Positions 54,592 to 59,415 of a DNA stretch of 64,000 nucleotides are shown piece after piece. Both the position numbers and the translations under genes were made by a program. The DNA lies in assembly GCA_965215555.1 (NCBI GenBank), contig OZ244071.1:1038471-1102470 (forward strand), written 5' to 3'. Numbering within the stretch: position 1 is the stretch's first letter; each line of letters starts with the position of its first letter. The notes under the pieces were generated by a model. It saw nothing but the letters and a program-made list of their open reading frames with translations. It made no database searches and had not been told where the DNA came from. This stretch comes from Dehalococcoidia bacterium. Lineage in GTDB: Bacteria; Chloroflexota; Dehalococcoidia; Bin125.

Positions 54592-55311
54592 TCAGCAGTC
54601 AAGCTGTGCGGCGAGGTCGTGGAAGTCGGTTGCGACGATGTCGAAGGATGGGTCGGGAGTGAGATCGACGGGGAAGTTTGGCCCTGCCTCATCTGGCCTT
54701 GGCACAAATGCCGTTCTCATGCCGGTTTGGGCGGCAGCGAGGAGATCTCCCTGGTGCGCGGCGACCATCATCACCTCATGCGACTCACATCCGAGCAACT
54801 CGGCTGCTCGCTGGTAACACTGTGGCTCCGGCTTGAATGCGCCAGTGACTTCTGCCGACAGGACACAGTCCCAGGGCAGTCCACCGAACTTGGCCATATT
54901 GACCAGCAACTCGATATTGCCATTGGACAGGGTCGAAACCACGAATCGCGAACGCAGACGTTGCAGTCCACCTGGAGAGTCAACCCACGGATGCAGGCGA
55001 TGCCAGGCGCGATTGAGTGCAATGACTTCGGACTCCTCCGCATCAATGCCGAGCTCCGACAGCAGCATCCGTAGCATCCGCAGATGCAACCCATCAGCCG
55101 TCTGGAACGGCAACTCGCCGTCGCGGACGAGCCGCATTCCGCCCGCGTAGCCCTCGCGACGCCAACGATCGGTGAACATGCCGGCATCGGCCTCGACGCC
55201 GTGCCGGTTCAGAAACGACGCCACCTCAGCCGAAACGGACGAGCGCCAGTCGACCACGGTGCCGAAGACATCGAACGTGAGCGCCCGTACCTGACTGAGA
55301 TCAGCGGCCAT
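54592..55311 (-). CDS. Haloacid dehalogenase type II / HAD-family hydrolase
   Basis: LTFDVFGTVVDW motif I, STLSNGN, AAHQGDL. Confidence 0.7.
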   Translation of the reverse strand: MAADLSQVRALTFDVFGTVVDWRSSVSAEVASFLNRHGVEADAGMFTDRWRREGYAGGMRLVRDGELPFQTADGLHLRMLRMLLSELGIDAEESEVIALNRAWHRLHPWVDSPGGLQRLRSRFVVSTLSNGNIELLVNMAKFGGLPWDCVLSAEVTGAFKPEPQCYQRAAELLGCESHEVMMVAAHQGDLLAAAQTGMRTAFVPRPDEAGPNFPVDLTPDPSFDIVATDFHDLAAQLDC

Positions 55312-55320
55312 GGTGCGTGC

Positions 55321-56172
55321 CTACAGAATCTGGCTGAGGAACAGCTTGGTCCGCTCCTCGCGAGGGTTCGTGAAGAAATGCTCGGGCGTGCCCTGCTCAA
55401 CGAGCGCCCCTTCGTCGAAGAAGACCAGTCGGTCGGCGACCTCGCGGGCGAAGCCCATCTCGTGCGTGACCACGATCATCGTCATGCCCGACTCGGCCAG
55501 TTCCTGCATCACGTCGAGGACTTCCTTGATCATCTCAGGGTCGAGCGCTGAAGTCGGCTCGTCGAACAGCATGATCTTGGGCTGCATGGCCAAGGCGCGC
55601 GCGATCGCCACGCGCTGTTGCTGACCGCCGGAAAGCTGAGAGGGGAATTTGTCGGCCTGCTCGGGGATGCCGACACGCTCAAGCAGTTGCATTGCCAGCA
55701 TCTCGGCCTCGAGCTTGGGCATGTGTCGCACCTTTTGCGGCCCCAGCGTGATGTTGCTGAGCACGGAAATGTGCGGGAACAGATTGAACTGCTGGAACAC
55801 CATCCCGACTTCCGAGCGAATCGCCGCCATCGCGCGGACGTCCTCGTTCAGCTCGATCCCATCGATCACGATTCGTCCGGCGTCATGCTCCTCAAGGCGA
55901 TTGAGGCAGCGAATGTAGGTAGACTTGCCCGAACCTGAGGGCCCCAGGATGACGACGATCTCATGCTCCTTAATCCGGAGCGACACGTCGTCGAGCGCCT
56001 GGAAGTCGCCGAACCACTTGTCCACGTGCTCGGTGATGATGATGTCGCTGGACCCGGCGAGACGAGGCGAGAACACCTCGGCGTCCGGATCGGGTGCGAC
56101 GGCAGCTGCCGATGCAGTCTTCGGCCCGGCCGACTCGGCGATGATGCTTGCTGGCGAAATCTCGTCTGCCAT
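55321..56172 (-). CDS. Polar amino-acid ABC transporter ATP-binding protein (AapP/GlnQ-like)
   Basis: GPSGSGKST Walker [18 protein letters not shown] signature, [11 protein letters not shown] Walker B. Start at 56172 with AGGTGA RBS. Confidence 0.85.
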
Positions 56173-56300
56173 GACGCTCACCTCATCCTTGTAACGCTTG
56201 TTGCGATGGTAGCGCTACGCACTGCGGCACGCGAGATGTAAGCGATGTGCACGATGTGAACGATGCGAAAGGCCCCGCTCGCTGGTACCGTTACCAATCC

Positions 56301-56504
56301 ATGCCGAAAGTTCGCAAAGCCACCGAGATCGTTGAGGCGGACGGCTGGTACTTCGCTGGGCAACGGGGAAGTCACCGATACTTCAAGCACCCAACGAAAC
56401 CAGGCAAGGTGACCATTGCCGGACGACCTTCGAGAGATGTTCCGCTCAAGATCTGGCGGAGTATTCTCAATCAAGCGGGGCTCGATTGGAGAGACTGGCA
56501 ATGA
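56301..56504 (+). CDS. hicA: HicA toxin
   Basis: MPKVRKATEIVEADGWYFAGQRGSHRYFKHPTKPGKVTIAGRPSRDVPLKIWRSILNQAGL. Confidence 0.75.
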   Translation: MPKVRKATEIVEADGWYFAGQRGSHRYFKHPTKPGKVTIAGRPSRDVPLKIWRSILNQAGLDWRDWQ

Positions 56505-56806
56505 AGACCATGAACTACGTCGTCGTGTTTGAGAAGGCACCCAACAATTGGGGAGCGTTCGTCCCGGATTTGCCAGGATGCGTCGCAGTTGCGGACACCT
56601 TCGAGGAAACGAAGCAGCTGATCACGGAAGCGATTGAGTTCCACATCGAGGCGCATGTCGTAGATGACGAGGCTCTTCCTGAGCCAACCTGCGTTGATGC
56701 GGCGGTCGTTGAGGTCACTATTCCCGAAGCAACGCGGTTCTACGAGGAGAAATACCCCCTGTTGGAGCCTGAGGAGCACACCGACGCCGCCGAGGTTGCC
56801 GACTGA
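56501..56806 (+). CDS. hicB: HicB antitoxin (UPF0150 N-terminal domain)
   Basis: MKTMNYVVVFEKAPNNWGAFVPDLPGCVAVADTFEETKQLITEAIEFHIE...; ATGA overlap with hicA. Confidence 0.75.
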   Translation: MKTMNYVVVFEKAPNNWGAFVPDLPGCVAVADTFEETKQLITEAIEFHIEAHVVDDEALPEPTCVDAAVVEVTIPEATRFYEEKYPLLEPEEHTDAAEVAD

Positions 56807-56811
56807 GCGGC

Positions 56812-58083
56812 CTACCGCTCGCCGATGCCTTGTGCTCGCTCCACTCGCTGCGAGACACGCGACATCATGAACGCGACCACCCAGAACACGACGGCGACGA
56901 ATACGTAGGCCTCGATCCGGTCGGGAATGAACTCTGACTGGGCGATCGCTGAGTCGGCGTTGCCCTTCAGTTCGCGCAGCGTCAGGATGACCGTGACCAG
57001 CGTCGTGTCCTTCCAGATCGCGATGGCCTGACCGACGATCGGTGGGATTGAGATTCTCAGTGCCTGCGGCAGGATGATTAGTTGCATCGACTGCAACTTG
57101 TTCAGCCCCACAGCCTGCGCTGCCTCGTATTGGCCTCGCGGCAAGGCCTGGAGACCGCCGCGGATGTACTCGGCCATGTAGGCGCCTGTGAATACGGCCA
57201 GGACGACCATCGTGCGGATAATCAGGTCGCCGCCCATGATGTCGTCGAGAATGAATAGCGCGACGAACAGCCAACCCAGCAATGGCGCTCCACGTACGAC
57301 TTCGATGTAGGCCGTACAAGTCCACTTGATTGTTTTCATGTTGGACGCGCGGCCAAGTGCCAGCGGAATTGCGACCACAAGTCCACCGACGATGCCCACC
57401 GGTGCCAGAATCAGGTTCAGTACAAATCCGTCGAACTGGCGTGTGTTGGCTCCGCCCGCGGCCATGAGGATTACCAGTACCAGCGGCAGCGAGATCGCTA
57501 ACAGTCCTCCGACGACCCGTTGATGCAGGGTCCGCCGTGGCGATGTATCGCGCGGCATCCATACGGTCAGGTAGTAGCCCAGGTAGAGACACCCGATTGC
57601 GGCAAGGAACCAGATCGATGACCAGATCGTTGCACCGCCGTGGGCCATCAAGAAGATGACGAACGCGCCGGTCAGGACGATGAAGAGCGAGTCCCGACGT
57701 CCGAGACTTGACCAGGTGCCGTAGGCGAGACCGATCAGGAACATGACCACAGCGATGCTGGTCCACAGCCGCCACGCCTCCTCGCGCGGGAAGGATCCAG
57801 CGAAGAGCAGCCAGCGATTGGCTGTGATCACGTTCCAGTTCGCGTCGAAGAACACGAACCAGACGACGCCGATGAACAGGACGCCCAGGAACCCAGCGGA
57901 CACGAGTGTCAGAATCGTGCCAGTCAGTGATGGGAAGAGGTTGCGGTTGACCCACTCGCGAGCGCGGACCGACCACGGGCGTCTCGCGCGTTGACGATGC
58001 GGCGGCAAGATGATCTTGCGGGGACCGCCTGCTGGCGGCAACGGAATCTGATCGGGGCGGGGGATTGGAGAAAGCTCTGACAT
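56812..58083 (-). CDS. Amino-acid ABC transporter permease (AapM-like)
   Basis: EAAQAVGLNKLQSMQLIILPQA (EAA loop) and multiple TM segments. Preferred over the overlapping alternative frame 56471-57976. Confidence 0.8.
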   Translation of the reverse strand: MSELSPIPRPDQIPLPPAGGPRKIILPPHRQRARRPWSVRAREWVNRNLFPSLTGTILTLVSAGFLGVLFIGVVWFVFFDANWNVITANRWLLFAGSFPREEAWRLWTSIAVVMFLIGLAYGTWSSLGRRDSLFIVLTGAFVIFLMAHGGATIWSSIWFLAAIGCLYLGYYLTVWMPRDTSPRRTLHQRVVGGLLAISLPLVLVILMAAGGANTRQFDGFVLNLILAPVGIVGGLVVAIPLALGRASNMKTIKWTCTAYIEVVRGAPLLGWLFVALFILDDIMGGDLIIRTMVVLAVFTGAYMAEYIRGGLQALPRGQYEAAQAVGLNKLQSMQLIILPQALRISIPPIVGQAIAIWKDTTLVTVILTLRELKGNADSAIAQSEFIPDRIEAYVFVAVVFWVVAFMMSRVSQRVERAQGIGER

Positions 58084-58092
58084 CAGCGCCCC

Positions 58093-59304
58093 CTACAACC
58101 GATTCGCAGTGACACGTGCATTGAACACGTTCATCACGGCGGAGATGGCAAACGAGATGATCATGTAGGTCACAATGATCACAAAGAACATTTCCAGCGC
58201 GTGGCCGGCCTTGTTCTGGATCACGGTGGCGACACGGAACAGGTCGTCGTAGAGGACGGCATACGCCAACGAAGAGTTCTTGTTAACGTTCAAGTACTGA
58301 TTGGTGACAGACGGGATCATCTGTCGCAAGGCCTGCGGCAGGATGATCAGTGTGAGGCGCTGATATCCCGACAGGCCGATGGCGTTGGCCGCCTCGGTTT
58401 GTCCACGCGGCAACGCCTGGATGCTGCCACGTACGATTTCGGCGATGAACGCTCCGGTGTAGGCAGTCAGTCCGAGCACCAACGCCGCGAACTCAGGCTT
58501 GATCACCATGCCTTCGGCGTACTGTGTGCCTTCGAGAATCGGACGATCGATCGAGACCACCACGCCGAGTAGCAGGAATGAAATCAGCGCGGCGCCGGCG
58601 AAGATCGAGAATGCCCAGCGATTCGGATAGTGCGGCAGTCCCGTTTCGCGCTCGAATTCCTGACGTGATGCGCGCACCCTCATCGCGACGAGCGCGGCCG
58701 CAATCAATACCAGGACCCAGACGCCGACGAACCAGTCAGGCACACCCCACAGACCGCCCGAGGGCACCGGCCAGGGAATCGCAATGCCGCGATTGGAGAG
58801 GAAGAAGAAGTCGCCAACGTTGACGACGTCCTGGATCACCGGGGCGCCTACGAGTAGGACCGCGTACCAGAGCACGACCTGGACGAGCAGTGGTGTATTG
58901 CGGAAGATCTCAACGAACAAGGTCGCCATCTTCGAGAGCAGGAAATTCGAAGACAGCCTCGCCACACCAATGAAGACGCCAAGCAGCGTAGACAGGAATA
59001 TGGCCACGAGGACCGCGCGCAGCGAGGCCCACACGCCGACGAGGTAAATCTCCAGTCGCGAGCTCGTCACACCGTCGACTTCAGTGAGCCACTGAGAGCC
59101 GACGGCGAACCCGGCCGGCTCGTTCAGGAAGCCAAAGCCAAAGTCACGCAAGTCGAGCGAGGTGTACACGTACCAGACGACGATGGCCGTCGCTGCAACG
59201 TAAATGGCCTGCTGCAGGACATTGCGGAACCTGCGCCGATAGAACAGCGGCACGTCACCGGAAGGCTGGACTTGTGCTGACATGCGAACCTGTTCGATGC
59301 TCAA
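58093..59304 (-). CDS. Amino-acid ABC transporter permease (AapQ-like)
   Basis: TEAANAIGLSGYQRLTLIILPQA EAA loop; 403 aa. Confidence 0.8.
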   Translation of the reverse strand: MSIEQVRMSAQVQPSGDVPLFYRRRFRNVLQQAIYVAATAIVVWYVYTSLDLRDFGFGFLNEPAGFAVGSQWLTEVDGVTSSRLEIYLVGVWASLRAVLVAIFLSTLLGVFIGVARLSSNFLLSKMATLFVEIFRNTPLLVQVVLWYAVLLVGAPVIQDVVNVGDFFFLSNRGIAIPWPVPSGGLWGVPDWFVGVWVLVLIAAALVAMRVRASRQEFERETGLPHYPNRWAFSIFAGAALISFLLLGVVVSIDRPILEGTQYAEGMVIKPEFAALVLGLTAYTGAFIAEIVRGSIQALPRGQTEAANAIGLSGYQRLTLIILPQALRQMIPSVTNQYLNVNKNSSLAYAVLYDDLFRVATVIQNKAGHALEMFFVIIVTYMIISFAISAVMNVFNARVTANRL

Positions 59305-59415
59305 CTCAAGGCGTGTCGGTTGCGCAACAGGCTAACGGAGATTGACTGGATGAGTTGGATAGCAAAAGGGGCCGCCCCTGCGGGCGGCCCCTGCATGATG
59401 CCGGCGGTTGACGGT

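Follow-up and report, generated by a model that had tools for sequence, protein, structure and literature searches.

The hicAB pair inside an amino-acid transporter operon

The stretch of DNA analysed here, hereafter the window, comprises 64,000 nucleotides (nt) of contig OZ244071.1 from a Dehalococcoidia bacterium, and all coordinates refer to that stretch. It carries a toxin-antitoxin (TA) gene pair, hicAB, located on the plus strand within a minus-strand operon for a putative amino-acid importer of the ATP-binding cassette (ABC) type. A preliminary description had recognised in this place an intact pair of 67 and 101 amino acids (aa), overlapping at ATGA and lying antisense between the second permease gene (aapM) and the ATPase gene (aapP). 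Both the open reading frames (ORFs) and the Pfam profiles agree with it. The features of the locus are as follows.

59416-60654 (maximum extent of the ORF), minus strand: aapJ, family-3 substrate-binding protein of the periplasmic type; PF00497 and TIGR01096; 375 aa according to the gene callers
58093-59304, minus strand: aapQ, first permease, ~400 aa; PF00528 and TIGR01726
56812-58083, minus strand: aapM, second permease of a polar or general amino-acid ABC importer, 423 aa; PF00528 and TIGR01726
56501-56806, plus strand: hicB, 101-aa HicB antitoxin; PF15919 (HicB_lk_antitox)
56301-56504, plus strand: hicA, 67-aa HicA-family toxin, putative ribosome-independent mRNA interferase; PF07927
56283-56291, plus strand: candidate extended -10 element for hicAB, TGGTACCGT, ending 9 nt before the hicA ATG; proposed from conservation
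56173-56300, both strands: divergent aapP-hicA intergenic region, cassette-borne, missing from empty sites and hypervariable within the species
56214-56206, minus strand: candidate -10 element for aapP, CGCTACCAT, ending 33 nt upstream of the aapP ATG; proposed from conservation
55321-56172 (ORF to 56181), minus strand: aapP, ABC ATPase (ABC_tran); PF00005, 131.8 bits

According to the ORFs and their Pfam or NCBIfam matches, the order along the minus strand is aapJ-aapQ-aapM-(hicAB, plus strand)-aapP-HAD hydrolase-enoyl-CoA hydratase. The intergenic gaps measure 111 nt between aapJ and aapQ, 9 nt between aapQ and aapM, 639 nt between aapM and aapP and 9 nt between aapP and the HAD gene. The hicB and aapM genes are convergent, with stop codons 5 nt apart. 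The ATPase start previously placed at 56172 is borne out by the Shine-Dalgarno (SD) sequence GGATGAGGTGA in front of it and by its homology to the M-T/A-D-E-L/I-S-P start of relatives with an empty site. A family-3 substrate-binding protein, two HEQRo permeases with three transmembrane segments and an ABC ATPase are present in one operon, which is the architecture of such an importer. AapP is GlnQ-like at 332.6 bits, under the NCBIfam equivalog cut-off of 379, and none of the transporter proteins reached an equivalog cut-off in that collection. The putative name Aap, which implies a broad L-amino-acid range, is taken solely from an AapM homologue, 92% identical, labelled by the Joint Genome Institute (JGI) as a general L-amino acid transport system permease. 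The operon resembles AapJQMP of Rhizobium in its J-Q-M-P order, its two ~400-aa HEQRo permeases and its GlnQ-like ATPase; it differs by the presence of hicAB between M and P and by a ~45-aa N-terminal extension of AapP. This extension (56040-56172) is rich in Ala and Pro, precedes the ABC domain and varies in length and sequence among relatives, tblastn alignments beginning anywhere from query residue 1 to 41. No second copy of hicA or hicB occurs in the window. An Rfam scan of 55000-61000 at a permissive threshold returned a single sub-threshold snoRNA match, attributable to chance.

The hicA gene lies in a plus-strand ORF spanning 56247-56504. Its start was placed at the internal ATG 56301, which gives a 67-aa protein beginning MPKVRKATEIVEADGWYFAGQRGSHRYFKHP. 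The N-terminus MPKVR is common to relatives, and all 20 relatives with an intact hicA start with M-P/A-K/N/T/S-V/F-R/H. Coordinate 56247, from which the gene had been counted earlier, is correct as the edge of the ORF and not as the start of hicA: a GTG start there (85-aa ORF) was rejected, the extension not being conserved as protein between haplotypes or species. No SD was seen upstream of hicA. HicA belongs to the PF07927 family (E=3.4e-16, 59.5 bits for a cut-off of 27, profile positions 2-58 of 58), and the Pfam scores of HicA and HicB are both far above chance; neither protein has a match in NCBIfam. A phmmer search of the PDB aligned residues 6-61 with Burkholderia pseudomallei HicA (4c26/6g26, E~3e-9). 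The G23-S24-H25 motif is present and H25 aligns with the catalytic position, an Ala in constructs 4c26 and 6g26, which we take to be H24A mutants. Judging from homology, HicA would cleave mRNAs via His25 of a fold resembling double-stranded RNA-binding domains.

The stop codon of hicA (TGA, 56502-56504) overlaps the hicB ATG (56501-56503) as ATGA. An SD sequence, GGAGAG, lies 8 nt upstream of hicB within the 3' end of hicA, and translation of hicB is probably coupled via the overlap in addition to using this SD. HicB consists of a ~70-aa partial RNase H-like core followed by a ~30-aa acidic C-terminal tail ending in AEVAD. The match to PF15919 (E=5.7e-13, 49.5 bits for a cut-off of 27) covers residues 7-69 only. 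An AlphaFold2 model built from 22 homologues (mean predicted local distance difference test score 85) has a beta-beta-beta-alpha core, with residues 81-101 acidic and modelled at low confidence. Its top Foldseek matches are all HicB antitoxins (root-mean-square deviation 1-2 Å over 53-59 residues), so that the predicted N-terminal fold is of the partial RNase H-like type. The PDB sequence match is confined to the N-terminal domain of Yersinia HicB3. Pfam, AlphaFold2/Foldseek and PDB matches revealed no helix-turn-helix (HTH) or ribbon-helix-helix (RHH) DNA-binding domain in HicB. By analogy with its homologues, HicB would neutralise HicA by packing the partial RNase H-like domain against it.

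In the scheme of Gerdes (2024, mBio, PMC10865869), Class 1 comprises adjacent or overlapping genes in hicAB order, with a HicA of 60-85 aa and a HicB of 67-97 aa without a DNA-binding domain. The sequence of the present pair fits Class 1, as a compact, putative type II TA system: hicA comes first, the genes overlap at ATGA, HicA is of the expected size and the small HicB carries no HTH or RHH. The pair departs from Class 1 in its fixed location inside an operon and in the ~30-aa tail, which brings HicB to 101 aa, 4 aa over the published range. As HicB has neither HTH nor RHH, it was not filed under Classes 3 or 4. In classical HicBs, dimerisation and repression of the operon at a palindromic operator are the work of an HTH or RHH domain at the C-terminus (PMC10865869); autoregulation of the window pair must therefore differ from that of classical HicAB or be missing. 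Class 1 is the commonest hicAB class and its regulation is an open question (PMC10865869). The HicA fold family, the catalytic His and the HicA-contacting N-terminal domain of HicB are common to the pair and to the systems of E. coli K-12 (6hpb), Yersinia pestis HicA3B3 (4p78/4p7d) and B. pseudomallei (6g26). The nearest relative outside the aap site is a hicAB pair adjacent to larA on metagenomic contigs (L094-L098), with HicA 64% and the HicB core 69% identical and the same ATGA overlap. It differs in its tail-less 79-aa HicB, in the presence of an SD (GGGAG) in front of hicA and in its position between unrelated genes, not in an operon.

Empty and filled sites in Dehalococcoidia

One genome per GTDB species was scanned with an AapM profile, which yielded 80 loci, all from metagenome-assembled genomes of Dehalococcoidia/Chloroflexota; we take many of the bin names (RHO, IRC, COS, SB066x) to be those of sponge-metagenome studies. 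The state of each site was determined by tblastn and by examining the junctions directly, since pairwise global DNA alignments to empty loci had proved unreliable. The aapM and aapP genes are adjacent at 52 loci, hicAB lies between them at 25, always in antisense orientation, and 3 are without an adjacent aapP. At these last (L079, L089 and L092) no aapP homologue occurs within 5 kb downstream of aapM, and the operon is organised otherwise. The closest empty relatives (L018, L019, L021, L026, L030, L042, L052, L062, L063 and L083) have a spacer of ~32 nt, CCTCAATCGAGAGGCGGCTTGAGGAGTGTGAG followed by ATG, whose conserved sequence reads CCTCAATCGAGAGGCGGCTTGAGGAG..ATG. In filled sites the aapM side still reads CCTCAGTC and the aapP side TGAGG..ATG, with ~8 nt of spacer left beside aapM. 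All genomes of the outgroup clades are empty. Together with the conserved spacer, this indicates that the cassette is derived and was inserted into the spacer, sparing the SD and ATG of aapP. The event took place long ago in the ~32-nt aapM-aapP spacer of aapJQMP, in a sponge-associated Dehalococcoidia lineage.

The insertion of a TA pair into an operon, as proposed in the preliminary description, is upheld by this comparison. That description had also held that a gap occupied by a conserved gene in relatives would point to an ancestral arrangement. The gap is indeed occupied in 25 relatives, so that the insertion stands as an ancient and polymorphic one and not as a new one. The G+C content of the cassette is 0.56, compared with ~0.61 in the flanks, a difference too small for recent transfer to be argued from composition.

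The last codon of hicB and its stop fall within the 8-mer CCTCAGTC, which filled sites have in common with the ancestral spacer. The C-terminus of HicB (56789-56806) thus ends within ancestral spacer sequence, and the tail may stem from read-through into flanking DNA at insertion.

Within the window species, hicAB was found at the aapM-aapP site in 12 of 12 distinct strain-level contigs. Across these, nucleotide diversity amounts to 0.29 in the 128-nt aapP-hicA region, 0.05 in hicA and 0.01-0.03 in aapQ, aapM, aapP, the HAD gene and hicB. Two deep haplotypes exist for the intergenic region, where they are non-alignable, and for the 5' half of hicA (12-13 synonymous differences over 44 synonymous sites). 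Each recurs in other species: haplotype A, that of the window, upstream of a cassette of another form (F2, described below) in L016/L017, and haplotype B in L014/L015. The promoter region and the coding part therefore recombine independently.

Two other places in the window vary among strains. Between the enoyl-CoA hydratase and HAD genes (48087-48973, minus strand) lie two genes, one encoding a 149-aa DUF6978 protein and the other a protein of 146 aa; in L001, L002, L005, L006, L011 and L012 this position is taken by a 154-aa PIN-domain gene, which makes it a second place in the same population where small cassettes alternate. A DUF433 gene at 62161-62484 (minus strand) is called as 73 or 83 aa depending on the strain contig and is uncalled in L008 and L009. 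PIN-domain genes lie near it, and its neighbourhood is rich in strain-variable small TA-like genes.

Cassette forms, probable exchange of alleles and erosion of the toxin gene

Filled sites carry one of three forms of the cassette. Form F1, that of the window, is found at 13 loci and encodes a HicA of ~67 aa and a HicB of 97-107 aa ending in AEVAD. Form F2 (8 loci: L016 (6800-7588), L017, L020, L022, L027, L036, L048 and L073) combines HicA with a ~160-aa HicB (~156-164 aa) that contains two tandem PF15919 domains and ends in (A/D)VAD. Among the 14 classes of Gerdes (PMC10865869), Class 7 is a hicBA module with two DUF1902 domains; a module in hicAB order with a tandem-domain HicB, such as F2, is not among them. 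Form F3 (4 loci) has a 92-aa HicB with a PGGG, PGGD or PGGS C-terminus in three loci and a different one in L061; in three of the four the HicB stop overlaps that of aapM within CTAG. The separate flank clade of F3 and its different junction imply at least two insertion or transfer events. A common AapP history of F3 and the main clade was rejected, since the tree of AapP alone keeps the F3 loci in another clade.

Empty sites and the three forms are intermingled in two neighbour-joining trees, one built from AapQ+AapM+AapP and the other from AapP; in the HicB tree, F1 makes up one group and F3 another. The window and L015 have AapM proteins 97% identical and flanks with a synonymous divergence (dS) of 0.32-0.47 and a nonsynonymous divergence (dN) of 0.01-0.03, compared with HicBs only 66% identical and a hicAB dS that is saturated (dN 0.25). 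The flanks of the window (F1) and of L016/L017 (F2) are 98% identical for a HicB core identity of 45%. Conversely, L024 and L032, whose flanks are 80% identical, have HicBs 85% identical, both with a DDDDEEYESPAL insertion in the tail. Pairwise dS among F1 alleles exceeds 1 and is saturated. A dN/dS above 2 obtained for AapJ was traced to the codon alignment and disregarded. The discordance between the cassette tree and the flank tree points to allele replacement by recombination. Moreover, as one genome cannot hold two alleles at one site, a long-standing polymorphism with recombination via the aap flanks is needed. Homologous recombination in the conserved aap flanks would thus carry alleles from one lineage to another. 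Since the insertion the site has behaved as a multi-allelic locus, either empty or occupied by one of the three hicAB forms.

The tail of HicB appears specific to this site. In a search of 5.8 billion proteins, the HicBs aligned over the tail (97-107 aa, 62-99% identical) all came from the aap-site group, and the four tail-bearing proteins that were looked up all lie at the aap site. The next matches are ~70-aa tail-less HicBs of cyanobacteria, Bryobacteraceae and others. The terminal AEVAD is kept in F1 and F2 while its codons vary at synonymous sites; what is constrained is thus the protein, not an RNA or DNA element. Folding of the minus-strand RNA at the aapM/hicB junction gave no special structure (z=0.13). 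One may guess that the tail acts as an RNA-mimicking plug or as a degradation signal.

Comparison of F1 alleles gives a median dN/dS of 0.14 for hicA and of 0.07 for hicB, and the ratio of nonsynonymous to synonymous polymorphism (pN/pS) between the two within-species hicA haplotypes is 0.14-0.21. These low values indicate that hicA and hicB are both maintained as coding sequences by purifying selection. hicB is intact in every complete locus. hicA is frameshifted in L038, without an intact 5' part in L046 and L047 and absent in L061. Within the window species a 1-nt deletion at codon 60/61 was found in 4 of the 12 distinct strain contigs; the contigs named for damage to hicA are L001, L003, L005, L006 and L008 for the deletion and L013 for loss of the start (ATG to ATC). 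The deletion shifts the last 7 codons of hicA, and the ORF runs 21 codons into hicB. The substitution L56P, in the second and last helix of HicA, is common among strains. The damaged alleles may encode attenuated toxins or may be errors of long-read assembly. Selection thus preserves both proteins, the toxin gene breaking first in some lineages. In the model of Belot et al. (2026, Mol Biol Evol, PMC13617665), too, chromosomal TA systems erode toxin first; with the antitoxin kept, this order is consistent with type II TA behaviour, as predicted from homology.

Expression of aapP, alternative readings and significance

Most of the intergenic region is unalignable across forms. On the aapP strand, a TAnnAT motif occurs nevertheless in all 20 assessable filled loci, including forms F1, F2 and F3, and is part of CGnTAnnAT in 17 of these. 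Its distance upstream of aapP is conserved, at 24-39 nt from the SD-preceded start chosen by script or 31-42 nt from the aapP ATG by manual count. This suggests that CGnTAnnAT is a candidate -10 element of a cassette-borne aapP promoter. Of the ways in which the preliminary description thought aapP might be expressed, it favours a separate promoter. On the other strand, a TAnnnT hexamer, often with a preceding TGn, is located 6-13 nt upstream of the hicA ATG in all forms; its proximity to the start and the lack of an SD suggest a leaderless or near-leaderless hicA mRNA. A terminator scan yielded only four weak stems of 5-7 bp (1.9 expected), with no convincing minus-strand terminator between aapM and aapP, so that read-through on this strand is possible. 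The aapP gene would probably be transcribed by read-through across the antisense cassette, from the cassette-borne upstream promoter, or both. Compared with L014, aapP shows dN 0.011 and dS 0.22 (dN/dS about 0.05), indicating strong purifying selection in filled genomes, where the gene is presumably expressed. Such evidence argues against harm to aapP from the cassette, and we infer that the transporter stays functional; it has evidently adapted to the cassette, as far as sequence can tell.

An insertion sequence (IS) of the IS1595 family, ~2.8 kb long, is located between hicA and aapP in L014 (7349-10123). Its transposase is of the ISXO2-like DDE type and includes a zinc ribbon; its inverted repeats (GGGGATTATATCGGATAGTGCCC) are perfect over 23 bp, and 8 bp of target (TTCACATT) are duplicated. 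The insertion point is the conserved ATGTGAAAC motif upstream of hicA, and aapP now lies 3.4 kb from aapM. The -10-like motif is still found beside the aapP gene of L014, which is intact and 98% identical.

These observations make it quite likely that the window carries an old, shared, multi-allelic, recombining and selectively maintained Class 1 hicAB cassette at a fixed site inside an operon whose transporter remains functional. Several points weigh against this conclusion. The trees are neighbour-joining trees of the locus itself and not genome phylogenies, so that part of the incongruence could reflect recombination in the aap genes and not in the cassette. The 1-nt deletions in hicA may be artefacts, as the contigs concerned are long-read assemblies. 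Gene calling in the collection missed hicA in all contigs of the window species but picked it up in L101 and L102; the absence of an SD and a leaderless or near-leaderless mRNA may be the reason. According to Gerdes (PMC10865869), Class 1 HicAB was still without an experimental test in 2024. A scan of 55200-58200 for the sigma-70 consensus returned no site (0.8 expected), and no -35 element is evident for either proposed -10, both having been put forward from conservation. Finally, the cassette edges show no transposase, integrase or recombinase gene, target duplication or terminal repeat, and a search for direct and inverted repeats around the cassette gave only short matches at chance level.

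Among the alternatives, hicAB could be the ancestral arrangement of the clade and the empty sites secondary deletions, without exchange between lineages. In the HAD-linked clade filled sites outnumber empty ones (~21 to 13), F1 and F2 have the AEVAD C-terminus and the junction in common, and toxin-first erosion followed by loss is an accepted route (Belot et al. 2026, PMC13617665). This reading is nonetheless improbable. All outgroup clades are empty, and empty sites in separate branches (L018, L019, L021, L026, L030, L062 and L063) have the same ~32-nt spacer with a small hairpin and an SD, which independent deletions would not recreate. Near-identical flanks also accompany either F1 or F2 (window/L015 versus L016/L017) and distant flanks accompany near-identical tails. 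With one allele per site in one genome, polymorphism and recombination would still be required.

It is similarly doubtful that the cassette has been co-opted, its divergent promoter driving aapP, the HAD gene and the enoyl-CoA hydratase (ECH) gene while transporter stoichiometry under stress is adjusted by convergent hicAB transcription or by the activity of HicA. In its favour, the linkage has lasted unusually long compared with the generally short-lived association of TA systems with their neighbours (PMC13617665), the -10-like element upstream of aapP is kept in all forms, hicB is intact even where hicA is lost and the promoter region is hypervariable within the species. However, ~13 close relatives manage without the cassette, with a 32-nt spacer, HicB has no DNA-binding domain for regulation, and addiction together with recombination would explain persistence without benefit to the host.

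A decaying, non-functional remnant in the window genome is less probable still: neither ORF of the window is truncated or lacks a conserved residue, HicA, with its GSH motif, aligns with the entire Pfam profile, and the pN/pS of the hicA haplotypes is 0.14-0.21, even if hicA is uncalled in the window species and several strain contigs carry a frameshift, a lost start or the common L56P. A recent private insertion splitting the operon and impairing or uncoupling the ATPase, as the preliminary description implied and as empty sites in relatives with 91-92% identical AapM (L018 and L062) and the slightly lower G+C of the cassette might suggest, is very improbable given that every strain contig (12 of 12) and 25 other species representatives are filled, dS between cassette alleles is saturated, filled genomes keep aapP under strong purifying selection and insertion scars are absent.

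An old, probably exchangeable cassette at a fixed site may be compared with the TA erosion model (PMC13617665) and with the hicAB-associated variable hotspots of ANME-1 (PMC13385816). Presence/absence polymorphism, toxin-first pseudogenisation, strain-level structural variants and an IS element nearby (in L014) are common to all. Unlike those cases, the linkage of the aap cassette to its two neighbours persists across many species (flank dS about 1), and the site lies in a conserved operon, not in a high-turnover spot or island, and is without a recombinase. Chromosomal TA pairs are usually viewed as short-lived passengers of high-turnover regions (Belot et al. 2026, PMC13617665), and hicAB has been reported without collinearity between related species (Makarova 2006, as quoted in a citing paper). 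No new kind of system is revealed here. What is unusual is the persistence of the linkage, the turnover of alleles at one site, the site-specific tail of HicB and the tandem-domain variant F2.

A more speculative proposal, which we consider a long shot, is that the cassette promoter is the promoter of aapP-HAD-ECH and that the acidic AEVAD tail is a new neutralisation or degradation element, the two coupling the state of the TA system to the energisation of amino-acid uptake in sponge symbionts. If true, this coupling would explain why one intra-operon site stays occupied through allele turnover across many species.

The locus thus presents one compact hicAB kept between two operon genes across dozens of species-level genomes, despite allele swaps and occasional toxin decay. 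It offers a natural system for studying how Class 1 pairs are regulated without a DNA-binding domain, how an operon tolerates a convergent insert and whether a TA pair persists by addiction, recombination or co-option.

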